Shown one piece after another: positions 19,967 through 50,409 of a DNA stretch of 64,000 nt. The DNA comes from Thermoanaerobaculia bacterium (GTDB taxonomy: Bacteria; Acidobacteriota; Thermoanaerobaculia; Multivoradales; JAGPDF01), in assembly GCA_963788175.1 (NCBI GenBank), contig CAWBFZ010000001.1, positions 724,804-788,803 of the forward strand, written 5' to 3'. The position numbers were made by a program, and so were the translations under genes. Within the stretch, counting starts at the first letter, position 1. Each line of letters opens with the position of its first letter. The notes beneath the pieces are model-generated. The model worked only from the letters and a program-made list of their open reading frames with translations. It was not told the DNA's origin and did not search any database.

Positions 19967-20876
19967 GTGAGCACCGGCGACAACGGATCCGTCTGGCAGA
20001 CCGACCTTCCCGGCCTGTCCGCGCCCCGGCGCGGCAAGGTTCGCGACATCTACGATCTCGGCGACAGGATCCTGCTGGTCGCGACCGACCGGCTGTCGGC
20101 CTACGACCACATCCTGCGGCCGGCGATCCCCGGCAAGGGCCGGATCCTCACGCAGCTCACCAATTTCTGGATGGAGCGCCTCGCCTGCCATCGTCCCGAA
20201 TCACCTCCTCGCGACCGAGGTCGCCGACTTTCCGGCCGAGCTTCGCCCCTATGCGCGACAGCTCGAAGGCCGCGCAGTCCTGGTGAAGAAGGCCGCGGTG
20301 GTGCCCTTCGAATGCGTTGCACGCGGCTTCCTCGCCGGCAGCGCCTTCAAGGAGTACAGCGCAGCAGGCACCGCCTGCGGCATCGCGCTGCCACCCGGCC
20401 TCGATCGGGCGAGCCGGCTCGCCGAGCCGATCTTCACGCCGGCGACGAAAGCCGAGTCGGGTCACGACGAGAACGTCGACTATCGCGACGCTCGCGGCCG
20501 GCGTCGGCGCCGCGACCGCGAGCCGCCTGCGCGAGCTGACCCTGGCGCTCTACCGGGCGGGGGCCGCGCACGCCGAGTCGGTCGGCCTGCTGCTCGCCGA
20601 CACCAAATTCGAGTTCGGTATCGATCGCCGGCGAGATCGTGCTCATCGACGAAGCCCTGACCCCGGACTCCTCGCGCTACTGGGAGGCGGCGGCCTGGAG
20701 ACCGGGCACCGAGCCGGCCTCGTTCGACAAGCAGTTCGTCCGCAACTGGCTCGACGCCTCGGGCTGGGACCACGAGTCGACTCCGCCCGAGCTCCCGGCG
20801 GAGGTCGTCGCCGGGACCCGCGAGCGCTACGTCGAGGCCTTCCGCCGGCTGACCGGGCGCAGCTCCCGCACTCTGA
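19967..20876 (+). CDS. purC: SAICAR synthase; frameshifted
   Basis: 'RGKVRDIY', 'ATDRLSAYD', '[11 protein letters not shown]', 'FTPATKA..GHDEN', 'ADTKFEFG', '[12 protein letters not shown]', 'DKQFVR'. Confidence 0.93.
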
Positions 20877-20935
20877 GGCGCTGCCGCGGCGAATACGTGA
20901 CACGCTCATGCTCCAGGAGAACCAATACACCGGGA

Positions 20936-21667
20936 ATGCTGACCGCCGAGAAGATCCGCGCGATTCACGAGCTGGTCGATGCCGCCCATGTCGGCATCGT
21001 CTTTCAGCCGATCGCCGACATTCACAAGCGGCGCATCCTCGCCTACGAGGCGCTGGCACGCAACTCGAATTCGCTCTTCAAGAGCACGCCGGAGATGTTC
21101 GCCGCAGCGGTGCAGGCCGGCCGGGTCGCGGAGCTCGGACGGCTGCATCGCGACCAGGCGGTGCGGCTCTGCCCGCACTATCCGCTCTTCCTCAACATCG
21201 ACCCGCACGAGTTCGACTACGGCTGGTTGGTGCGGCCGGACGACCCGATCTTCCGCCACCGCCACCCGATCACGGTCGAGATCACCGAGTCGGTGCCGAT
21301 CAAGTACTTCACGCAGTGCCACAGCGTGCTGGCGGAGATCCGCCAGAAGGGGATGTCGCTCGCCATCGACGACCTCGGCGCCGGCTTCTCGAACCTGAAG
21401 TACATCGCCGACCTGCAGCCGGAGATCGTCAAGCTCGACCGCGAGCTGATCCTCGGGTGCGCACCCGGCAACCGCCCGTTCAAGCTGCTGTGCTCGATCG
21501 TCTCGCTGTGCAAGGAGATGAACGCCAAGACGGTCGCCGAAGGAATCGAGACCCTGGGCGAGTTCGAGGCCGCGGTCGAAGCCGGCGTCGACTACGCCCA
21601 GGGCTACCTCCTCGGCCGCCCCGCCTGCCCCGCCCCCGACCTCATCTGGCCGGGCACCTCGCGCTAG
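20936..21667 (+). CDS. Stand-alone EAL-domain c-di-GMP phosphodiesterase (start may be 20908 across a frameshift)
   Basis: 'FQPI', 'EALAR', 'LNI', 'EITES', 'DDLGAGFS', 'VKLD', 'AEGIET', 'QGY' all present. Confidence 0.9.
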
Positions 21668-33702: not shown

Positions 33703-35922
33703 GTGCTAGCGTTTTCGATCTTGCGGATCGCACTCTTTTTCTTCTTCATCTCCTCCGGCTTCTGCAGCCTCGTCTACCAGGTGGTCTGGCTGCGGCTGGG
33801 CATGGCGAGCTTCGGTGTCAACACCGCGATCGTCTCGATCCTCCTCTCGGTCTTCATGGCGGGCCTGGCCGCCGGCAGTTGGGGCGCCGGGGCGTGGCTG
33901 CGGCGCTCAGGCAAGAGCCCAGCCGCGGCGCTGCGCGCGTACGCCGGCGCTGAGCTCTGGATCGGCCTGTCGGCCTGGATCGTGCCATCGGGGCTCGAAG
34001 CAGGCGGACGCTGGCTCGGGCTTCTCGGCGCCGGCTGGGCGTCGGCAGCTCATTTCACTCTCGCCGGCGCCTGGCTGACCGTCGTCCTGCTGCCGTTCTG
34101 TGTCGCGATGGGCGCCACGATCCCGCTGGCGATGCGGGCGGTCGAGCAGAGCCCGGCCGCCGGCCTCCCCCGCGCGCCCCGCAGATCCTTCAGCTATCTC
34201 TACGCCGCCAATGTCGCCGGCGCGGCGATCGGGACGCTGGTCTCGGCTTTCGTTCTGATCGAGCTCCTCGGATTCAGGGGCACGCTCGCCTTCGCGGCGG
34301 GCCTCAATCTTCTCGTCGCGGCGTGCGCAGCCGCCCTCAGCCGGCGTCCCGCCTTGTCGACTGCCGTCGCAGCCGAAGGCGATCGACCCGGCAGCGGCGA
34401 CGGCTCGCGCCCGCTTCTGGGCGCCCTGTTCTCCACCGGCCTGGTCAGCATGGCCGCCGAAGTCGTCTGGGTGCGGCAGTTCACGCCGTTTCTGAGCACC
34501 ATGGTCTACGCCTTCGCCGCCCTGCTCGCGGTCTATCTCGTCGCCACCTTCTGCGGCAGTCTCTTCTACCGCGCCCTCGACGCGCAGCGGTTGCCGAGGT
34601 GGGAACGCTGGATCTGGATCGCCCTGCCGGTGTTGGCGGTACTCCCGCTGGCAGCCGCCGACCCGCGCGTGACCTTTGGAGCCGGCGGAGCGACTTCCAG
34701 CCTCTTCAGCTTCGACGCCATCGCCCGCCTCCTCCTCGGCATCGCGCCGTTCAGCGCCGCTACCGGTTTCGTCACCCCGCTGCTCGTGGATCGCTACTCC
34801 GGAGGCCGCCCGCGCGCGGCCGGTTTCGCTTACGCCGTCAACGTCCTCGGCTGCATTCTCGGCCCGCTGCTCGCCGGCTTCGTGCTCCTGCCGCTCCTCG
34901 GCGAGCGCTGGGCGCTCGCCCTGCTGGCGCTGCCACTGCTGGCGAGCGCCACGGTGCTCTATCGCCAGTGGCTGCCCGCGACAGCGACGGTGGCGACATC
35001 GGCGCTCATCCTCCTGACTGCCTTGGCGACGCGCGGCTTCGAGTCGACCCTGCCCGGGGCGACGGTGCTGCACGACTCGACCGCCACCGTGGCCGCGGCC
35101 GGTTCGGGGATGCAGAAGCGGCTGCTCGTCAACGGTGTCGGCATGACGCACCTCACGCCGATCACCAAGATGATGGCGCACCTGCCGCTCGCCTTTCGCG
35201 CCGCGCCGCCGACCCACGGCACGCTGGTCATCTGCCTGGGCATGGGCACGACGCTGCGCTCCGCGCTGTCGTGGCAGGCGCCCGCGACGGCGGTCGAGCT
35301 GATTCCCAGCGTCGTCGCGCTGGCGCCCTACTTTCACGCCGATGCGCGCCAGCTGTTCTCCTCGCCGCGGGCGCGGATCGTCGTCGACGACGGCCGGCGC
35401 TTCCTGGCACGCTCGGCCGACCTCTATGACGTGATCGTCATCGATCCGCCGCCGCCGGTCTACGCGGCGGGATCGAGTCTGCTCTATTCAGTGGAGTTCT
35501 ACGCCACGGCACGACAGCGTCTGGCGGAGCGCGGCATCCTGCAGCAGTGGATCCCGGCCGGCGACCGCCGGCTCATGTCCGCCGTCGTCGCTGCGGTGGC
35601 CGGGAATTTCCGCCATGTCCGGTTGTTCGGATCGATCGAGGGCTGGGGGCTCCACATTCTCGCCAGCCAGGAGCCCATCGAGCCGCTGACGGCCGAAGAG
35701 CTCGCGGCCCGGCTGCCGCCGGCGGCCGTGGCCGACCTCCTGGAGTGGGGCCCGGCAGCGACGGCTGCCGAGCAGTTCCGGCCCGTTCTCGCCCGGGAGA
35801 TCGCGCTCGAGAGCCTCGCCGGAGCCGAGGCCGTCCCGCTGCGCGACGACCGGCCGGTGAACGAATACTTCTTCCTGCGCATGCGCAGCAGCCGCGCCGC
35901 TGCCGGCGCCGGCGAGCACTGA
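33703..35922 (+). CDS. Fused multi-TM/spermidine synthase-like protein
   Basis: About 12 TM helices ('SGFCSLVYQVVW', 'LYAANVAGA'), then SAM-fold 'LVICLGMGTT', 'VELIPSV', 'DDGRRFL', 'YDVIVIDPPPP'. Confidence 0.85.
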   Translation: MLAFSILRIALFFFFISSGFCSLVYQVVWLRLGMASFGVNTAIVSILLSVFMAGLAAGSWGAGAWLRRSGKSPAAALRAYAGAELWIGLSAWIVPSGLEAGGRWLGLLGAGWASAAHFTLAGAWLTVVLLPFCVAMGATIPLAMRAVEQSPAAGLPRAPRRSFSYLYAANVAGAAIGTLVSAFVLIELLGFRGTLAFAAGLNLLVAACAAALSRRPALSTAVAAEGDRPGSGDGSRPLLGALFSTGLVSMAAEVVWVRQFTPFLSTMVYAFAALLAVYLVATFCGSLFYRALDAQRLPRWERWIWIALPVLAVLPLAAADPRVTFGAGGATSSLFSFDAIARLLLGIAPFSAATGFVTPLLVDRYSGGRPRAAGFAYAVNVLGCILGPLLAGFVLLPLLGERWALALLALPLLASATVLYRQWLPATATVATSALILLTALATRGFESTLPGATVLHDSTATVAAAGSGMQKRLLVNGVGMTHLTPITKMMAHLPLAFRAAPPTHGTLVICLGMGTTLRSALSWQAPATAVELIPSVVALAPYFHADARQLFSSPRARIVVDDGRRFLARSADLYDVIVIDPPPPVYAAGSSLLYSVEFYATARQRLAERGILQQWIPAGDRRLMSAVVAAVAGNFRHVRLFGSIEGWGLHILASQEPIEPLTAEELAARLPPAAVADLLEWGPAATAAEQFRPVLAREIALESLAGAEAVPLRDDRPVNEYFFLRMRSSRAAAGAGEH

Positions 35923-35990: not shown

Positions 35991-38315
35991 TCAGCGCGCG
36001 TCGGGGCGTTCGCGGAAGAGGAGCCAGAGGGCGGCGGGCAGGATCGTGAAGTCGGCCAGCATGGCGAGGACGAAGGCCGCCGAGGTGACGATGCCGAACT
36101 GCCGCATCGGGGGCAGGTTCGACAGCACCAGGGCGAGGAAGCCGCCGGCGTTGATCAGGGTGGCGAAGAGGATCGGATGGCCGGCGACCCGGATCGAGTG
36201 CGCAAGCGCCTGCTCCGTGGTCGCACCGCTGCGGTGTTCCTGGAAGTGATAGAAGAAGTGGATCTGGTCGTTCTCCGTGGCGCCGAGCACCGTCGTGGCG
36301 ATGAGGATCGTCGCGACGTTCAGCGGGATGCCCGTGATCCGCATGAACAGGAACATGACGAGGATGGCGAACAGCGACGGCAGCATCGCGGTCAGGCGGG
36401 CCGGGCCACTGCGGAACACCAGCAGGAAGGTGAAGAAGATGATCGCGAAGGTGATCGTGAAACTGTGCACCAGGGTCGGCACCAGTTGCGCAGCGATCGT
36501 CGCCTGCAGGACGCCGCTGCCGACCAGCCGGTAGGAGAAGTCCTGCAAGGCCGGTGACGACGACGATGCCCGCCGCCAGGCCGCGTCCACCCCTGCGCGC
36601 AGGGCGCCGAGTCCGCCGGGATCGCCGGCGCGAGCGGTCACGGTGAGATAGGTCGCCTGCAGGTTCGTCGTGTCCACCCACTGCCGCAGCGTCGGCTCGA
36701 CCAGCAGCAGTTGCTCGAGGTCGGCCGCCACCGCCGCCAGTCCGCTCTCGTCGCGCGGCAACGCTTCCCCGAGTCCCGCGGCGTAGCGCCGCAGGCGGAG
36801 CACCGCCGGGAGTCCCACCACCGAGCCCACTGCCGGTTCGGCCGCGAGCTCGTCGCTCAGGACGGCGAGGGCGGCGAGAGTCCGGGGCTCCAGCACCGCG
36901 CCGGCCGGCGTCGTCACCAGCAGCGCGACGGAGGTGAGTCCGACGACCTGGTCGGTGAAGGCGCGGGTGTCGCGGGCGGCGGGGAGATCGGGATCGACGT
37001 AGTCCAGGGCATTGACCTGCAACCGCATCGGCGACACCAGTCCAGGGAGGCCGACGAGGGCGACCAGACCGGCGACGGAGAGCACCGCGGCACCGGCGAG
37101 AATCCCCCACCGCCGCGCATAGGACCAGCGCGGCAGGAGATCGGCGACGCGGGCCACCCAGCCGCCCGAAACCGCGCGCTCACGGCGGGTCGGGGTGCGG
37201 AAGAGGAGCTGCAGGGCCGGGTAGAGGGTGAAGCAGACGACCCAGCCGAGGAGCAGGCCGGTTGCGGTCCAGATGCCGAGTTGCCGGATCGGCAGGATCT
37301 CCGAGACCGCCAGCGCCGCGAAGCCGACCGCCGCTGCGAAGACGGAGGCCGAGACGGCGAGGAACTTGTTCTGCAGCGCGAACACCCGATGCGCGTCGAG
37401 ATTCGCACCGGCGCTCTGGTCGACGAAGCGCGAGTGCAGGTAAACCAGGCTCGCCGTGGCCGTCACCATCAGCGTCAGCGGCACGAGGGACGACACGATC
37501 GTGAAGCCGAACCCGAGCAGGCCGCCGACCGCCACACCGAGCAGCACGGCCATGCCGAGACTCACCAGAATCGCGGCGAGGGCCCGCCATGAGCGATAGA
37601 GCCCCAGCACCAGCAGCACGACGAAGACCCCGAACAGGGGGAAGAAACGCACCGTGGCCGCCGCCGTCTCCCTCTCCAGCCAGGAGTCCAGCCACGGCGC
37701 GCCGACCCGGCCGACGCCGGTGATGCGGCCTGGCCCCTGGCGGCCGGCCCCTCCTCCATCCAGGCTCGTGGCGATGGCAGCGTCGATGCCGGCGAGGGCC
37801 GCGTCCCGCTCGGCGGACCCCGCCACATCGAGGGCCGCGACGACACCCCAGAAATCGTTGCCGACGAGACCCTGGGCGCGAAAGAAACCGGTCCCCTCGA
37901 CGAAGCGTCGAAACGCCGCCGAATCGTGAGCCTCTTCCGGCTTCCCGGCGGCACCGGGATGCAGGCGCTCCCAGACGGTGAGCACCGAATACGGCACCAC
38001 CTTCGGCACGCTGCCGAGTTCCTTGTGCAGCGCTGCGAGCCCGGCGATCGCCGCGGCAGAAAACGGCTCCGGCGTCCGGGCGATGAGGATCACCATGGGC
38101 TGCTCGGGGAAGAGGCGCTGGAACTCCCGGGTGGCCAGGACATCGGGGTTGCCGGCGACCACCATGCGCTCGAGAGCGTTGTCGCGCGGAATGCGCAGCG
38201 CGAGCACCAGCGCTCCCGGGAGGAGCAGGGCGTAGAGGGCGACGACGATCCACCGTGCGCGGAGGAGGCGCGCGAAGAGCGACTCGAGGCGCGAGCCGGG
38301 GGTTGATGTCATCAT
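35991..38315 (-). CDS. MMPL/RND family lipid transporter (BstA-like)
   Basis: Two repeats of 1 TM + periplasmic loop + 5 TM; 'GATENDQIHF', 'GFLALVLSNLPPMRQFG'. Confidence 0.85.
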   Translation of the reverse strand: MMTSTPGSRLESLFARLLRARWIVVALYALLLPGALVLALRIPRDNALERMVVAGNPDVLATREFQRLFPEQPMVILIARTPEPFSAAAIAGLAALHKELGSVPKVVPYSVLTVWERLHPGAAGKPEEAHDSAAFRRFVEGTGFFRAQGLVGNDFWGVVAALDVAGSAERDAALAGIDAAIATSLDGGGAGRQGPGRITGVGRVGAPWLDSWLERETAAATVRFFPLFGVFVVLLVLGLYRSWRALAAILVSLGMAVLLGVAVGGLLGFGFTIVSSLVPLTLMVTATASLVYLHSRFVDQSAGANLDAHRVFALQNKFLAVSASVFAAAVGFAALAVSEILPIRQLGIWTATGLLLGWVVCFTLYPALQLLFRTPTRRERAVSGGWVARVADLLPRWSYARRWGILAGAAVLSVAGLVALVGLPGLVSPMRLQVNALDYVDPDLPAARDTRAFTDQVVGLTSVALLVTTPAGAVLEPRTLAALAVLSDELAAEPAVGSVVGLPAVLRLRRYAAGLGEALPRDESGLAAVAADLEQLLLVEPTLRQWVDTTNLQATYLTVTARAGDPGGLGALRAGVDAAWRRASSSSPALQDFSYRLVGSGVLQATIAAQLVPTLVHSFTITFAIIFFTFLLVFRSGPARLTAMLPSLFAILVMFLFMRITGIPLNVATILIATTVLGATENDQIHFFYHFQEHRSGATTEQALAHSIRVAGHPILFATLINAGGFLALVLSNLPPMRQFGIVTSAAFVLAMLADFTILPAALWLLFRERPDAR

Positions 38316-38346
38316 CCAGCGGCATCTTACCGGGCAGGAGAGCGCC

Positions 38347-39252
38347 ATGCGGGAGCCGCACGCGGAATCGTCGACGGGAAGACCGCTCGTCCACCATCGG
38401 ATCGCACTGGCTGCAATGGTGCTGCTGGCGATCGGGTCGTTTTCCGGCTCCGCCCAGACCACGTCCGCCGCAGGGCCACGACTCCTCGTCGTCTGCGCAC
38501 CGGGCTATCCGGGTTCGACGCTCGAAGCGCAGCCGGCGATGGACGCGCTGGCCGGCGCCATCACGATGGCAGCGGGCTGGAAGGAAGGCGAGCTCACTGC
38601 GGCCTACTTCGAAAGCGAAAAGGCCGGCCTCGCCCGGCTCGCCGAGCCGGCAGCGACTCTCGCCCTCGTGCCGCTGAACTTTTTTCTCGCCCACCGCGAA
38701 GGCCTGAAGCTCGTCCCCCTGGTGCAGGCGATCCAACAGGGCGGCGAAGCCGCGGAGGCTTGGAGCCTGGTGGCGGCCAGGGGCGCGGTGACCGGACCTG
38801 CGAGCCTCGCTGGCTACGAGTTGGTGAGTCTGGCGGGCAACACGCCGCGCTTCGTGCGCGGGCCGGCGCTCGGAGCCTGGGGGAAGCTCCCGGAGGATCT
38901 GAAGATCGTCTTCTCGGGCGCGCTGCTCTCGGGACTGCGCCGCGCGGCCGCCGGCGAGAAGGTCGCGCTGCTGCTCGATCGGGCCCAGGCGGGAGCGCTC
39001 GCGACCCTGCCCTCGGCGCCGCAGCTCGAGGTGGTGACGCGCTCCCCTCCCCTGCCGGTGTCCGTGCTGTGCGCCATCGGCAACCGCCTGCCCGCTCCCC
39101 GGCTCGATGGCCTCGTCCAGGTACTCACTCAGCTGGCTGCTTCTCCGGCGGGTGCCGAAGCTCTCGCTGGCGTACGCCTTGCCCGCTTCGTTCCGGCCGA
39201 GGCGAAGTCCCTGGCCAGCGCCAGCGACGCCTACGCACGCGTCAAGGAGTGA
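38347..39252 (+). CDS. PhnD-like periplasmic substrate-binding protein (BstB-like)
   Basis: Signal peptide; 'VVCAPGYPGS..EAQPAMD', 'LVPLVQA', 'VTRSPPLP'; type II binding-protein character. BstB assignment rests partly on gene context. Confidence 0.65.
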   Translation: MREPHAESSTGRPLVHHRIALAAMVLLAIGSFSGSAQTTSAAGPRLLVVCAPGYPGSTLEAQPAMDALAGAITMAAGWKEGELTAAYFESEKAGLARLAEPAATLALVPLNFFLAHREGLKLVPLVQAIQQGGEAAEAWSLVAARGAVTGPASLAGYELVSLAGNTPRFVRGPALGAWGKLPEDLKIVFSGALLSGLRRAAAGEKVALLLDRAQAGALATLPSAPQLEVVTRSPPLPVSVLCAIGNRLPAPRLDGLVQVLTQLAASPAGAEALAGVRLARFVPAEAKSLASASDAYARVKE

Positions 39253-39253
39253 T

Positions 39254-40096
39254 GTGCGGCCGCTTCCCGAACTTGCGCTCGCCCTGACCGCTCTCCTCCT
39301 CGCGGGGTGCGCCTCGGCTCTGCGAACTCCACCGCCAGTGGAAGCGATTGGCGCCCGCGGCAAGATCTCCCGGGCCAGCGCAACCCCCTCGACGGACACC
39401 CCGCAGCCCGCCGAGGTGCCCGGTCTGCTCGAGCGGGCTTCGGCGGCCTTCGCGCAACGCCCCGACGCTGTCGCGGTGACTCAGGCAAGAGAGCTCTATC
39501 TCACTGCCGCTCGCGCCGACGAGACTGGAATGGAAGGCCTGCTGGGCGCGGCCGTCGCCGGCGCCTGGTTGATCGAGCATGAGTCCGACCGCGCCCGCCG
39601 CAGCGAGCTCGCCACCGAGGGTGTGCAGGTCAGCCAGTGGTGCCGCGAGCGCGCTCCGGATCGCATCGACTGCGACTATCGGTTGGCCCTGGCCCTCGGC
39701 CAGCAGGCGCGGGAGCGCCCGGCCACCGCGGTGGACGCGCTGCCCAGAATCGTCGAACTGCTGACCGCGGTCGTCGCTGCGGCGCCGAACCTCGACGAGG
39801 CCGGGGGTCACCGCGTCCTCGCCCTCGTGCTGCTGCGCGCGCCCGGCTGGCCGGCCGGACCCGGAGATCCGGAGCAGGGGCTCGCGCACGCCCGTGAGGC
39901 AGTGCGACTCTCCCCCGCCTTCCCACCGAACCTCCTGGCGCTGGCCGAAGCGCTCGCCACCAGCGGGGACACGGCAGGAGCGCGCCAGACGTTCGCCCGG
40001 GCCGCAGAGCTGGCGCGGCAGCGGCTCGCCGCCGGCGACCCCGACGCGGGCGAATGGATCGACCAGGCGGCGCGCGCCGCGGCCGCCCTGCGGTGA
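39254..40096 (+). CDS. TatT/TPR-like helical lipoprotein (BstC-like)
   Basis: GTG start right after the upstream stop; lipobox 'LLAGC'; 'CDYRLALALGQQARER', 'AGGHRVLALVLLRAPGWP.GPGD', 'FPPNLLALAEAL'. Confidence 0.7.
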   Translation: MRPLPELALALTALLLAGCASALRTPPPVEAIGARGKISRASATPSTDTPQPAEVPGLLERASAAFAQRPDAVAVTQARELYLTAARADETGMEGLLGAAVAGAWLIEHESDRARRSELATEGVQVSQWCRERAPDRIDCDYRLALALGQQARERPATAVDALPRIVELLTAVVAAAPNLDEAGGHRVLALVLLRAPGWPAGPGDPEQGLAHAREAVRLSPAFPPNLLALAEALATSGDTAGARQTFARAAELARQRLAAGDPDAGEWIDQAARAAAALR

Positions 40097-40100
40097 TGCG

Positions 40101-40867
40101 CTAGAAGAGGAACGGCACCAGCGCCCGCCGCGCGCGCGGGTAGTCGGTGAAGGTGGCGCGATACCAACGATGATGCTCCACCGCGCGCGGCACCAGGTTC
40201 GCCAGGGTCCAGGCGAGGAAAGCGAAGCCCGGGAGCGCTCCCATCACGATTGCGAACCCGGTCCACTCGACGATCTCACCGAAGTAGTTGGGGCAGGAGA
40301 CGAAGCGGAAGAGCCCGCCCTGCGGCACCCGGTAGCCGCTCCGACTTCCCGCCGCAGGCGGCGCAGGATCGCATCGGAGTGCAGGTTGATCGCCGCGCCG
40401 ACGACGAAGAGCACCAGCCCGATCGCGACGCGCGGCTCGGCAAGCCGAAGCGGCATCGGCGACGGCGCCAGCTCCCCGAGCCAGAGTCCCTGCAGCGAGC
40501 CGTTGACCAGGTTGAAGAAGACCGCCGACAGGACGATCGACAGCGGCATTGGGTGCGAGGCGCGCGGCAGCCGCAGCGGAAAGACCAACGTGCGATTCAC
40601 GTAGTGCGCGACGAACATCGCCCCGAGCAGCCCCGAGTAAACGTCGAGCGGCCGCGAGCCGAGCGCCAGGCCGAGCCCGACGAGCAGCAGCGCCGGCGCT
40701 TCCATGACCATCCAGCCGAGCCGCGCCGGGACCTGCGGCCCCCACCCGGCGCGCAGGTGACGGCCGTACGGCGCGGTGACGAAGAAGAGCGCCACGAACA
40801 CCACAGCGGCAAGGCCGATCCAGGTCCAGTTGAAAGCAGCGAAGAATCCGGGATCGATCGTCGGCAT
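40101..40867 (-). CDS. 3-oxo-5-alpha-steroid 4-dehydrogenase (steroid 5-alpha-reductase, SRD5A family); one frameshift near 40345
   Basis: 'APYGRH', 'GWMVMEAP', 'HYVNRT', 'NLHSDAILRRLR', 'YRVPQGGLFRFVSCPNYFGEIVEW', 'NLVPRA..HHRWY', 'YPRARRALVPF'. Confidence 0.9.
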
Positions 40868-40888
40868 CCTCTCGCGTCTCTCAGCCGG

Positions 40889-41875
40889 TCAGTTCGCAGT
40901 CAGGCATCCGTGCTCGCCCAGCCAGACGACGCTGTCACGGATCGTCTCGGCGAACGGCCGCGGCGCGTGGCCCACCTCCAGGCGGGCCTTCGTGCCGTCG
41001 ACCTGACGGCTCAGCCGGATCGCCCTTAGCGACTCCGCAGTGTAGAGCGCCGCGCGGCCGAGGACTTTGCCGAAGATGGTGACGAACGGCACGCCGAGCC
41101 GCGCGGCCCAGAGCGGCGCGACGAACCGCGGCGCAGGCACGCCCGTGGCGCGCGCCACCTCGCCGGCGAACCCGGCGATGGGCAGCCAGTGGCCGGAGAC
41201 GAGATAGCGCTCCCCCGGTCGGCCCCGGTCGCCGGCGGCCAGCGCGGCCCTCGCGACGTCGCGCACGTCCACCCAGTCGAAGCCGCCGGCGACCAGCGCC
41301 GGCATCTGCCGGCGCGCCAGCGCGACGATCAGCCGGCCGGTAGGCGATGGCTTGAAGTCGAACGGACCGACGATCGCCGTCGGATTGAGAATGACGACCT
41401 CGAGCCCGCGCGCCGCCGCCGCCAGGACTTCGCGCTCGCCCGCCGCCTTGGATCGGTCATAGGCCGGCGCTCCGCGCTCGACGACGAGAGGCTGCGTTTC
41501 GTCCATCGGATGGTCGGCGCGCGAGCTCTCGAGCGCATGGATCGAGCTGAAATGCACCAGCCGCCGCACGCCGGCCGCGAGGCAGGCCGCCGCGACGTGC
41601 CGCGTGCCAAGCACATTCACCCGCTCGACAATGCCATCCGGGTCGCCGGCGATCGACACCTCCGCCGCCGCATGGAAGACGACCTCCGTCCCAGCCACCA
41701 GCGGCGCGAGCGCAGCCGGATCGAGCAGGTCGCCGGAAACCCTGTCGACCGCAAGCCCGCGCACCGCGCGGTCGTCGGCGCGCAGCAGCACCCGCACCTC
41801 GTCGCCGCGGGCGAGGAGCGCCCGCACGAGGTTCGCCCCCACGTGGCCCGACGCCCCGGTCACCGCAACGCGCAC
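40889..41875 (-). CDS. Extended SDR / NAD-dependent epimerase-dehydratase (3-beta-HSD/HpnA-like)
   Basis: 'TGASGHVG', 'FHAAA', 'NVLGT', 'HFSS', catalytic 'YDRSK', 'DVRDVA'. Confidence 0.85.
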   Translation of the reverse strand: MRVAVTGASGHVGANLVRALLARGDEVRVLLRADDRAVRGLAVDRVSGDLLDPAALAPLVAGTEVVFHAAAEVSIAGDPDGIVERVNVLGTRHVAAACLAAGVRRLVHFSSIHALESSRADHPMDETQPLVVERGAPAYDRSKAAGEREVLAAAARGLEVVILNPTAIVGPFDFKPSPTGRLIVALARRQMPALVAGGFDWVDVRDVARAALAAGDRGRPGERYLVSGHWLPIAGFAGEVARATGVPAPRFVAPLWAARLGVPFVTIFGKVLGRAALYTAESLRAIRLSRQVDGTKARLEVGHAPRPFAETIRDSVVWLGEHGCLTAN

Positions 41876-47954: not shown

Positions 47955-47984
47955 ACGATAGCGAACGGCCACGCGGGCTGTCAA
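47955..47984 (-). promoter_or_regulatory. Sigma70-type promoter of the tRNA cluster
   Basis: TTGACA, 18 nt spacer, TATCGT just upstream of tRNA-Gly. Confidence 0.6.
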
Positions 47985-48385
47985 GGATGCAGCACCGGCG
48001 CGTCGAAGGCGTTCTTCACCAGGGTGAAGCTCCAGGCGCCGTCGCGGCCGCGGTCGAGGCCGAGGACGTCGAAGCGGCAGGGGCGCTGGGAGCGGTTTTT
48101 CGCCAGGAAGAGCAGGGCGGCTTTGGCCAGCCGGCGCTGCTTCTGCGGGCCCACCGCTTCGATCGCCCGGCCGAACTCGGCGGTCGCCCGGGCCTTGATC
48201 TCGATGAAACAGAGCGTCTCGCCGTCGAGCGCCACGAAGTCGAGCTCGCCGACCTTGGTGCGGACGTTCCGGGCGACGATCCGGTAGCCCGACAGCCGCA
48301 GGAAACCCTCCGCGGCGTCCTCCCCTGCCGCCCCCCGCGCATGCGTGTGCGGCAGGTCACCGAAGCCCTTGAGGCCGGAGCTCAT
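47981..48385 (-). CDS. YraN family protein
   Basis: 'GAAGEDAA..FL..GYRIVARN..GELDFVA..LCFIEIKAR', 'CRFDV'. Confidence 0.9.
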   Translation of the reverse strand: MSSGLKGFGDLPHTHARGAAGEDAAEGFLRLSGYRIVARNVRTKVGELDFVALDGETLCFIEIKARATAEFGRAIEAVGPQKQRRLAKAALLFLAKNRSQRPCRFDVLGLDRGRDGAWSFTLVKNAFDAPVLHP

Positions 48386-49817
48386 CGTCTCCGCCGCCCT
48401 ACCGCCGCTTCCACCGCGTCCCCTGCGGCGAGTCCTCGAGCACCACCCCGCGCGCCGCGAGGTCGTCGCGGATACGGTCCGACTCGGCGAAGTTGCGCGC
48501 CGCGCGCGCCGCCACGCGCGAAGCAATCGCGGCTTCGATCTCGGCCTCGGAGGCGAGATGTGTCGGCTCCGGAAGCGGCCACCGTGCCCCACGGCATGAA
48601 GATCACGCCCAATGCCTGGTCCACTAGCCGCAACGCCGCGATCACCCGCTCCGGATCGCCAGCACCCAGCTCCCGCCGATCGATCATCCCGTTCACCTCG
48701 CGCACGAAATCGAACAGCGAAGCCAACGCTGCGGACACATTCAGGTCGTCGGCGAGACCAGCCGAGAACCCAGAAACCAAGGTCTCTACCTTTACTGAAA
48801 GCTTTTCTTCTTCCTGCTGAACGACCACGGCATGCGCCGACCCGATCGATGAAGTCGTCGAGCCGGATCAACGCTGCGCGCGCTCCGTCCAGCCCGGCGA
48901 AAGTGAAGTTGAGCTTCTGCCGGTAGTGCACCGAGATCAGCAGGTAGCGCAGGGCGCGCGGCGAGATGCCACGCGCCAGAAGGTCGGAGAGAGTGTAGAA
49001 GTTGCCCAGCGACTTCGACATCTTCTGGCCGTCGACGATCAGGTGCTCCGAGTGCAGCCAGGTGCGCACGAAGGGCACGCCGTTCGCCGACTCGCTCTGG
49101 GCGATCTCGTTCTCGTGGTGCGGGAAGAGGTTGTCGACGCCGCCGCAGTGGATGTCGAAAGTCTCGCCGAGGAAGGCGGCGCTCATCGCCGAGCACTCGA
49201 TGTGCCAACCCGGGCGTCCGGGGCCCCAGGGCGAGGGCCAGCTGGGCTCGCCGGGCTTGGCGCCCTTCCACAGCACGAAGTCGCGCACGTCCTCGGTCTC
49301 GTACTCGTCGCTCGCGACCCGCTCCCCCACCCGGGCCTCGTCCTTCTTGAATCCGGAGAGCTTGCCGTAGTCGTCGTCGGCGGCGATGCGGAACCAGACC
49401 GAGCCGTCGCTCTCGTAGGCGAAGCCCGGCGGCGAGCAGGCGAGCGATGATCGCCTGCATGCCGTCGATGTAGTGCGTGGCGCGCGGATAGGCCGCCGCC
49501 GGCACGACGTTCAGTGTCGCGAGATCGGCCGCGAACGAGGCGATGAACGGCGCGGTGTAGACGTCGAGCGCCAGGCCCTTCTCGAAGGCGCCGCGGATCG
49601 TCTTGTCGTCGACGTCGGTGAGATTCATGATCTGCGTGACCTCGAAGCCGAGGAAGCGCAGACTCCGGCAGAGCAGATCCTCGAACAGGAAGGTCCGGAG
49701 ATTGCCGATGTGGACCGTGTTGTAGACCGTCGGTCCGCAGGTGTAGATGCCGACCTTCCCGGGCTCGAGCGGCTCGAACGGCTCGAGCCTGCGCCCGAGC
49801 GTATTGAAGAACTTCAC
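48382..49817 (-). CDS. cysS: Cysteine--tRNA ligase; frameshifted
   Basis: '[12 protein letters not shown]', 'DFVLWK', '[13 protein letters not shown]', '[11 protein letters not shown]', 'KMSKS'. Confidence 0.95.
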
Positions 49818-49890
49818 ACTCTCTGCGATCCACACGACTCCTTTCGAGCACCCGGTCCGTCCGCCCGGCACGAGTCCGGTGGGGTCGAGC

Positions 49891-50409
49891 TTACGCCAGC
49901 ATCTCTTTCGCATAGCCGAGCTTCCCCAGCCTTCGCATCGCGAGCTGGCGCCGGAGGCCGCGCAGGTGATCGATGAAGAGGATTCCCTCCAGGTGATCGA
50001 TCTCGTGGCAGAGCACCCGGGCGAAGAAACCCTCGGTCTCGATCTCGAACGCCTCGCCCGAGAGCCGCTGCGCCGCCACGCGAACGACGAGCGGGCGCTC
50101 GATCCGCTCGGTGAAGCCGGGAATCGACAGGCAGCCCTCGATGTCGGTCTCGACGCCGGCGCGTTCGACGACGCGGGGATTCACCAGCACATGGAGCTCG
50201 GAGCGCGGTCCGGTGGGATCGATGTCCACCACCGCGACCCGGCGCAGGTCGCCGATCTGAGGGGCGGCCAGACCGACGCCCGGGGCGGCGTACATCGTCG
50301 CCGCCATCTCCGCGACCAGGCGCGAGAGTGAGCTGTCGAACGCGGAGACCTCTTCGGTCTTCTGGCGCAGGATCGGGTCTGGGAAGAGGAGGATCGGCCG
50401 CAGCGTCAT
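49891..50409 (-). CDS. def: Peptide deformylase
   Basis: 'GVGLAAPQIG', 'EGCLSIPG', 'HEIDHLEG'. Confidence 0.95.
   Translation of the reverse strand: MTLRPILLFPDPILRQKTEEVSAFDSSLSRLVAEMAATMYAAPGVGLAAPQIGDLRRVAVVDIDPTGPRSELHVLVNPRVVERAGVETDIEGCLSIPGFTERIERPLVVRVAAQRLSGEAFEIETEGFFARVLCHEIDHLEGILFIDHLRGLRRQLAMRRLGKLGYAKEMLA

Follow-up and report, generated by a model that had tools for sequence, protein, structure and literature searches.

To our knowledge, the only bacterial sterol transport system described is BstABC, reported as a small family centred on methanotrophs. In Methylococcus capsulatus, according to the eLife 2024 account (PMC10942540; structures 7T1M and 7T1S), it joins an MMPL protein of the inner membrane to a periplasmic protein with the PhnD fold and a lipoprotein of the TatT/TPR kind; the operon holds sdmA, sdmB, bstA, bstB and bstC and adjoins sterol genes, and the BstB and BstC clusters are given as 16 and 13 sequences. 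Here we describe a five-gene cluster of similar composition in a 64,000-nucleotide stretch of a Thermoanaerobaculia genome of the Acidobacteriota (the whole stretch is called the window below; it is G000:C1:724804-788803, G000 being the source assembly of 4.46 Mb in 20 contigs with 69% G+C). Like the M. capsulatus operon, the cluster brings together an MMPL-type RND protein, a PhnD-fold protein and a TatT/TPR lipoprotein, with a short-chain dehydrogenase/reductase (SDR) of the HpnA/SdmB family alongside, as sdmB is there. It differs in that its MMPL protein is of another subtype and is divergently transcribed, and in that a steroid 5-alpha-reductase (SRD5A) type gene stands in place of sterol synthesis genes or of an oxygenase gene of the sdmA type, the partner of SdmB; none of these was found in the cluster (SdmA itself was not searched for). 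Since the host has no detectable cyclase, export of self-made sterol is excluded, unlike in M. capsulatus. The cluster is best read as a system for the uptake and A-ring saturation of acquired sterol-like lipids, a reading to which we give a little under even odds (about 45%).

Hopanoid clusters, with their HpnN and HpnA proteins, resemble this locus in that trios of the window's type occur in those of Myxococcota and in that the window SDR belongs to a sister clade of HpnA. They differ in that the window SDR scores under the HpnA cut-off (254 vs 368 bits) and the pump under that of HpnN (70 vs 752 bits), and in that hopanoids lack the 3-oxygen required by an SRD5A-type reaction. Among the steroid 5-alpha-reductases (PbSRD5A, SRD5A1/2 and DET2), PbSRD5A (7C83) aligns with the window-type reductase over nearly the full length (257 vs 258 amino acids), with the catalytic Glu and Tyr and the NADPH motifs conserved. 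PbSRD5A is a bacterial enzyme for which seven transmembrane segments have been reported and which reduces progesterone in vitro (PMC7815742). The window-type gene differs from it in its association with a dedicated SDR and with transport genes of the Bst type, and in one residue of the QEY motif. The TatT fatty-acid binders (Tp0956, Es_TatT; 8G52) share the all-helical TatT fold with the lipoprotein of the window (Foldseek template modelling (TM) score 0.63), but their sequence match has an E value of only 0.005, versus 4e-14 for BstC, and the partners in the window are an MMPL protein and a PhnD-fold protein rather than the PQM components of TRAP systems.

BstB and BstC relatives and the adjoining pump

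For both soluble proteins of the cluster, the corresponding Bst family was the sole NCBIfam match (BstB, NF045601; BstC, NF045602), and the best sequence matches found in the PDB with phmmer were 7T1M for the BstB-like protein (E 1.5e-12) and 7T1S for the BstC-like protein (E 4e-14). AlphaFold (AF2) models were made with alignments of relatives and then compared by Foldseek. The top match of the BstB-like model (predicted local distance difference test score, pLDDT, 88.5) was again 7T1M, with TM scores of 0.72/0.83 and an E value of 8e-19; the oxyanion binders ArrX, PtxB and PhnD reached TM scores of at most 0.64/0.74 at 12-17% identity. The predicted bilobed PhnD-type fold is thus nearer to BstB than to the oxyanion binders by both Foldseek and phmmer. 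The BstC-like model (pLDDT 90.6) likewise had 7T1S as its top match (TM 0.66/0.78). This protein is a lipoprotein with the TatT all-helical fold by Foldseek, and in the phmmer alignment it carries a Glu at the position of BstC E86, a residue that hydrogen-bonds the sterol hydroxyl and is needed for sterol binding according to an Acc Chem Res account. A residue count on the corresponding alignment indicates that BstB Glu118 is kept in the BstB-like protein.

Judged by sequence and predicted fold, the homology of the two proteins to BstB and BstC is real. An earlier note on this DNA had called the three transport genes a BstABC-like trio and had proposed comparing them with the Bst proteins by profile and structure. 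That comparison places 7T1M and 7T1S at the top by sequence and by predicted fold, and the name holds for the two soluble proteins; it does not hold for the pump, which is assigned to an MMPL subtype other than BstA. The pump occupies the genomic context of BstA, being an MMPL/RND inner-membrane gene that adjoins the BstB-like and BstC-like genes as a divergent neighbour. It matches Pfam MMPL in two stretches (74.3 bits), and its NCBIfam matches, HAE3 (113 bits) and HpnN, are both under cut-off. A PDB sequence search with the pump returned no match. Elsewhere in G000, the best matches to the BstA model score 85 and 61 bits (G000:C15:162-896 and G000:C6:356-766); both are at contig starts, and they may represent the two ends of a single RND gene that was interrupted in the assembly.

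The reductase pair and its frameshift

The SDR has the motifs TGASGHVG and YDRSK and no signal peptide. Its scores to HpnA (TIGR03466, 254.2 bits vs a cut-off of 367.65) and to SdmB (NF052578, 235.2 vs 600) both fall short, while 454-459 bits are reached by true HpnA proteins whose genes adjoin hopanoid genes or lie close to them. In the PDB, the SDR matches 3WJ7 best (172 bits). In a tree from which one partial row was dropped, the SDRs adjacent to SRD5A genes form one clade (14 rows, support 100/100) that is separate from the HpnA-type SDRs (9 rows), and the window SDR falls in this clade, a separate sister group to HpnA and SdmB.

The membrane reductase had been assigned to the SRD5A family in the earlier note, and a more precise placement is now available. 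An intact ortholog from the congener G003, 84% identical to the N-terminal half encoded in the window, has PbSRD5A (7C83) as its best PDB match at 223 bits, followed by 140 bits to human SRD5A2 and 58 bits to a TECR-like protein of the enoyl-reductase type. The catalytic Glu (in MEAP) and Tyr (in HY) and the C-terminal NADPH-binding motifs are conserved. On sequence grounds the enzyme is clearly of the steroid 5-alpha-reductase type 1/2 (PDB 7C83 and 7BW1), closest to PbSRD5A. In a quick tree of SRD5A proteins the deep nodes were open and the SDR-paired and unpaired sequences were interleaved, which gives no evidence that the reductase pair has moved as a unit.

All five genes that the earlier note had listed at 35991-41875 were located, with the qualification that the SRD5A gene is not a single open gene here: the Pfam Steroid_dh domain (PF02544) is broken near 40343 into two frames. 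At the shift site the window has 14 nucleotides (nt) where an alignment gives 12 in the congener G001. Every public short-read contig that bridges 40342-40347 is without 2 nt of the window, in 3 of 3 runs (X1, X3 and X20; run X2 gave no cover at the site), and the SRD5A gene is in frame in these contigs because of that difference; none of them carries the frame version of the window. Other genes of the window are split in the same manner. The catalytic domain of cysteinyl-tRNA synthetase (cysS, 47981-49913, minus strand) lies in two frames that match the profile at 2-119 and 161-296, and SAICAR synthetase (purC, 19967-21667, plus strand) is likewise broken over frames. With cysS and purC also split, an assembly indel error is the likeliest cause, and the SRD5A shift is very probably such an error in a gene that has not decayed. 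Given such errors, single frameshifts in assembly G000 should not be taken as pseudogenes. The N-terminal half in the window is 84-85% identical to the intact genes of congeners and the C-terminal half 81-92%. In five congeners an intact single-frame SRD5A match is found at the same place; in G004, its N-terminal part aligns in two pieces.

Distribution, genomic contexts and layout

Within the genus, BstC-like genes were found in 5 of 16 congeners (G001, G003, G004, G009 and G013), and these are exactly the genomes in which a cluster-type SRD5A gene adjoins MMPL, BstB-like and BstC-like genes. Genomes of this genus, then, have the cluster as a whole or not at all. Because the same gene order is seen again in the five congeners, the arrangement is not a matter of chance. 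Six other relatives have SRD5A genes of 38-47% identity (N-terminal half) and neither trio nor SDR within the fetched flanks.

Across the phylum, 401 genomes including G000 were sampled. A BstC-like match was present in 54 of them and was strong in 35 besides G000 (one of these, G189, is unpublished). A BstB-like gene was adjacent in 30 of the 31 fetched loci whose BstC-like match had E<=1e-17, the exception being a contig of 4.8 kb. SRD5A genes of the window type occurred in 33 of the 400 other genomes; 29 SRD5A loci could be covered for their neighbourhoods, and four further SRD5A-positive genomes are outside this count. The SDR is directly adjacent in 10 of the 29, and all 10 genomes carry BstC-like genes; among the 19 loci without an adjacent SDR, only one genome (G317) does. 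The pair is found in families f1, f20, f25 and f38, in each case with the trio, although in f20 and f38 the BstC-like genes are elsewhere in the genome than the pair. Unpaired SRD5A genes without the trio come from families f5, f9, f50, f63, f72, f94 and f97. Related genomes are not independent, and the association is given here as counts. In a second lineage (G081, G065 and G046) the order is MMPL, BstB-like, BstC-like, a FadL/TodX-family channel, SDR and SRD5A, and the Bst scores there are higher (MMPL BstA-like at 396 bits, BstB-like 165, BstC-like 107). The cluster has five or six genes in every lineage examined. The synteny check suggested by the earlier note therefore finds the same order in five congeners and the same parts linked again in a second lineage, and its question whether the reductase pair is co-conserved with the trio is answered in the affirmative by the paired genomes and by the behaviour of the cluster in the genus. 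A different pattern occurs in genus g15 (family f9, of the same order; for example G032:C1), where all 9 sampled genomes have an unpaired SRD5A and none has the trio; cyclase-domain matches, one to four per genome, occur in 7 of them, and SRD5A may act there on self-made triterpenoids.

The earlier note had seen no cyclase in the window, an observation that extends to the genome and to other carriers of the linked genes. G000 has no match to the N or C domain of SQHop_cyclase, to HpnH or to the squalene synthase domain SQS_PSY, and the 8 other genomes with linked clusters have no real cyclase, G001 giving one 35-bit match in a frame of 1244 amino acids. In the 10 sampled genomes with both pair and trio, a cyclase-like match was found in G200 only (196 bits, in a frame of 1130 amino acids). 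SQS_PSY matches reach only 20-40 bits in the window's genus; the second lineage does have SQS_PSY genes, that of G081 scoring as phytoene synthase or HpnD-like in an NCBIfam scan. Weak squalene-cyclase C domains (158-196 bits) lie in long frames at G317:C22:11376-12362 (1155 amino acids) and G200:C37:31760-32737 (1130 amino acids); in G317 that contig also carries the SRD5A gene, some 10 kb away.

A wider survey covered 80 loci from genomes of named species, found with an alignment of 12 BstC sequences. A BstB-like gene was adjacent in 77 of these loci and an MMPL gene in 60, of the window's subtype in 53 and HpnN/BstA-like in 7. The hosts of the trio include Acidobacteriota, Myxococcota and metagenome-assembled genomes (MAGs) labelled Gemmatimonadales, Gammaproteobacteria and Verrucomicrobiia. 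In four of six loci annotated with NCBIfam (L143, L164 and L168 from Myxococcota, L178 from Gemmatimonadales), the trio has as neighbours a squalene-hopene cyclase gene (690-736 bits), a gene for HpnH or HpnG, and one that is squalene synthase-like. In the Myxococcota loci the MMPL is of the window type (45-53% identity), and the SDR that accompanies it was assigned to the HpnA clade solely from tblastn and the SDR tree. The Gemmatimonadales MAG locus has a trio of the BstA/HpnN type with squalene-hopene cyclase, HpnA, HpnG and the squalene synthase-like gene; HpnA is above cut-off there and in L152, which lacks the cyclase. The nearest informative contexts of the window's trio type are thus the hopanoid clusters of Myxococcota and not sterol clusters. 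Together with the M. capsulatus operon, the hopanoid contexts tie the trio family to squalene-derived polycyclic lipids. Literature searches turned up no account of Bst relatives next to hopanoid genes (some relatives may already be listed in the supplements of the BstABC papers) and none of a pairing of SRD5A with Bst-like genes in Acidobacteriota, in agreement with the earlier note, whose author knew of no description of this pairing in the lineage.

Several of the surveyed loci have further neighbours. At L143 (3907-6173, a Myxococcales MAG), a phosphoinositol-dihydroceramide-synthase-like gene (171 bits, under cut-off) and an Omp85-family gene stand between the trio and the hopanoid genes. 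At L082 (5392-16937, genome G078), and also at L150 and L155, an HpnN/BstA-like MMPL gene, a BstB-like and a BstC-like gene lie beside a squalene-synthase-like gene and genes of the mevalonate pathway (HMG-CoA reductase, kinases, a decarboxylase and a type-2 isopentenyl diphosphate isomerase-like gene); no cyclase was found in the G078 genome. At two acidobacterial loci, L077 (11518-16733) and L101 (10365-15815), the gene after the trio encodes an unannotated protein of some 750 amino acids, and next comes an outer-membrane barrel of the TonB-dependent-receptor type (CarboxypepD_reg/OMP_b-brl_4), which could be another uptake partner.

The coordinates of the cluster are collected in Table 1. 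The SDR and SRD5A genes, with 21 nt between them, converge on the BstB-like and BstC-like genes. The flanks hold unrelated genes: a fused major facilitator superfamily (MFS)/spermidine synthase, a beta-eliminating lyase, peptidase M28, DnaB and alanine racemase. The fused MFS/spermidine-synthase gene (33703-35922, plus strand), which scores 60 bits to NCBIfam NF037959 and exceeds the cut-off of that family, is the immediate upstream neighbour of the pump gene. In the fetched congener loci no homolog was detected next to the cluster (other lineages were not searched); the sole match, in G003, has 30% identity and lies about 1.6 kb past the pump. DNA nearly identical to the window was found in runs from wastewater, activated sludge, bioreactors and sediment, from 13 studies, one of which is possibly the source of the assembly.

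Table 1. Features of the cluster, in window coordinates
Feature	Coordinates	Strand	Details
MMPL/HAE3-type RND inner-membrane transporter	35991-38315	-	774 aa from MMTSTP start; open reading frame open to 38462
BstB-like PhnD-fold periplasmic binding protein	38347-39252	+	N-terminal signal-peptide-like segment; Pfam Phosphonate-bd 31.6 bits
BstC-like TatT/TPR all-helical lipoprotein	39254-40096	+	lipobox LLAGC read in translation
SRD5A-type reductase (Steroid_dh), whole	40101-40867	-	two frames in window
SRD5A N-terminal part, substrate-binding half, frame A	40340-40867	-	Steroid_dh profile 2-71, 47.5 bits
SRD5A C-terminal part, NADPH-binding half, frame B	40101-40343	-	Steroid_dh profile 71-150, 109.9 bits
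Frameshift site within SRD5A gene	40342-40347	.	window 2 nt longer than in-frame versions
Extended SDR, 328 aa	40889-41875	-	Pfam Epimerase 111.6 bits, 3Beta_HSD 79.4 bits

Candidate functions and their bearing on lipid biology

We propose that the cluster is an accessory five-gene lipid module, for which we infer a substrate, an order of reactions and a direction of transport as follows. A BstABC-like shuttle, made up of the outer-membrane lipoprotein, the periplasmic carrier and the MMPL-type RND protein, would move a sterol-like polycyclic lipid between the two membranes of the envelope, and once in the inner membrane this lipid would be worked on by the cytoplasm-facing SDR and the SRD5A-type membrane reductase. 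The SDR would oxidise the 3-hydroxyl to give the conjugated 3-oxo-delta-4 form, the reductase would use NADPH to convert the double bond to the 5-alpha form, and a ketoreduction, possibly by the same SDR, may give back the alcohol. The outcome would be a saturated lipid of the stanol type, destined for the envelope of the cell itself. With no cyclases in this organism and in the other carriers of the linked cluster, the lipid is most likely acquired, as sterols or other 3-oxygenated triterpenoids; the FadL-type channel of the second lineage also points to an acquired substrate, and the wastewater, sludge and sediment habitats agree with it. We regard as unlikely a more specific form of the proposal, in which Acidobacteriota that live in sludge, soil and sediment and lack cyclases would scavenge the sterols of eukaryotes by means of the Bst-like shuttle, helped in one lineage by a FadL-type channel, and would hydrogenate them to 5-alpha-stanols with the SDR-SRD5A pair.

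A number of observations weigh against uptake and saturation of sterol-like lipids. The BstB-like and BstC-like proteins score far under the equivalog cut-offs (62.7 and 82.2 bits, each against 350) and are only 23-24% identical to the solved M. capsulatus proteins; at this distance from BstC, and with TatT relatives that bind fatty acids, the substrate is not predictable. By residue count on the phmmer alignment, the position of BstB Y120, which lies near the head group of the 4-methylsterol that BstB binds, is a Trp. The pump gave no match to the BstA model (NF045600, cut-off 1400 bits) at E<=0.01 in a protein scan, nor did a whole-genome scan give one at this locus, although the MMPL proteins of the related loci L103 and L082 score 396 and 332 bits with that model. 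MMPL/RND proteins are mostly exporters, which is a better fit to a self-made lipid. The SRD5A gene is frameshifted in the G000 assembly, the Gln position of its QEY motif is a Met, and we know of no bacterial SRD5A for which a natural substrate has been established. Of the 5 cluster-bearing congeners, 4 have the SDR and G004 gave no match to it, and G017 and G018, of the window's family, as well as G317, have the trio and an SRD5A gene without an adjacent SDR. Of the 35 Acidobacteriota that carry a strong trio match, only 8 have a cyclase domain, versus 89 of 401 in the background (the 89 include the unpublished G063 and G088); there is no enrichment, so that within this phylum the trio family is not tied to cyclised triterpenoids. 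Finally, the G000 assembly is only 88.7% complete.

Several of these points fit a different account as well, in which a self-made, non-cyclised lipid, of the polyprenol type or a long-chain enone or enal, is edited by the SDR and the SRD5A-type enzyme and exported by the RND trio. Here the SDR would make a conjugated carbonyl and the reductase would saturate the adjacent double bond, in the manner of DHRSX and SRD5A3; the combination of an SDR with an SRD5A enzyme is known from dolichol synthesis (PMC11250103). Export is the direction of MMPL/RND transporters and of BstABC as proposed, the trio carriers of the phylum are not enriched in cyclases, some acidobacterial trios lie beside squalene-synthase-like and mevalonate genes in genomes where no cyclase was found, the SDR scores 103 bits to OleD, and TatT-superfamily relatives of BstC bind long-chain fatty acids (PMC11713862). 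However, the reductase is of type 1/2 (223 bits to PbSRD5A and 140 to SRD5A2, versus 58 to the enoyl-reductase type), SQS_PSY matches are absent from G000 and reach only 20-40 bits in its congeners, an uptake channel of the FadL type lies within the cluster of the second lineage, and the nearest contexts of this trio type are hopanoid clusters. We hold a self-made non-cyclised lipid to be rather unlikely, if a serious contender.

The FadL-type channel and the wastewater, sludge and sediment runs would also suit the import of sewage or sediment steroids for catabolism or detoxification, with 5-alpha reduction as an early step of anaerobic breakdown or as inactivation; PbSRD5A acts on a steroid hormone, and BstC-like genes also occur in MAGs labelled Steroidobacteraceae. 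This seems improbable to us, as the cluster and its surroundings hold no additional genes for catabolism, the flanks being housekeeping genes (the genome was not searched for ring-cleavage genes), and as the cluster consists of only five or six genes wherever it was examined. That the adjacency has no meaning, the SRD5A gene being a decaying pseudogene and the trio moving something unrelated, would accommodate the two frames in the window and the state of G004, with its split SRD5A matches and no SDR match. It is very improbable in view of the intact single-frame SRD5A matches in place in five congeners, the in-frame public contigs, the cysS and purC frameshifts that indicate assembly error, the retention or loss of the cluster as a unit in the genus, and the renewed linkage of the same parts, with a different Bst subtype, in the second lineage.

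These results indicate that Bst relatives are widespread beyond methanotrophs, that they stand beside hopanoid genes in some phyla, and that in cyclase-less Acidobacteriota they co-occur with an SRD5A-SDR pair. Should uptake and saturation of sterol-like lipids not be the function, the module would still mark an uncharacterised system for lipid editing and trafficking. If it is the function, the cluster would offer a testable set of genes for sterol uptake and stanol formation by environmental bacteria, and would be relevant to faecal and redox sterol biomarkers and to the reasons for which SRD5A homologs are retained in bacteria. If the sterols are indeed scavenged, genes and organisms could be named for the microbial conversion of sterols to stanols that geochemists read in anoxic sediments, and sterol would be a membrane lipid of free-living bacteria that are unable to make polycyclic triterpenoids themselves.

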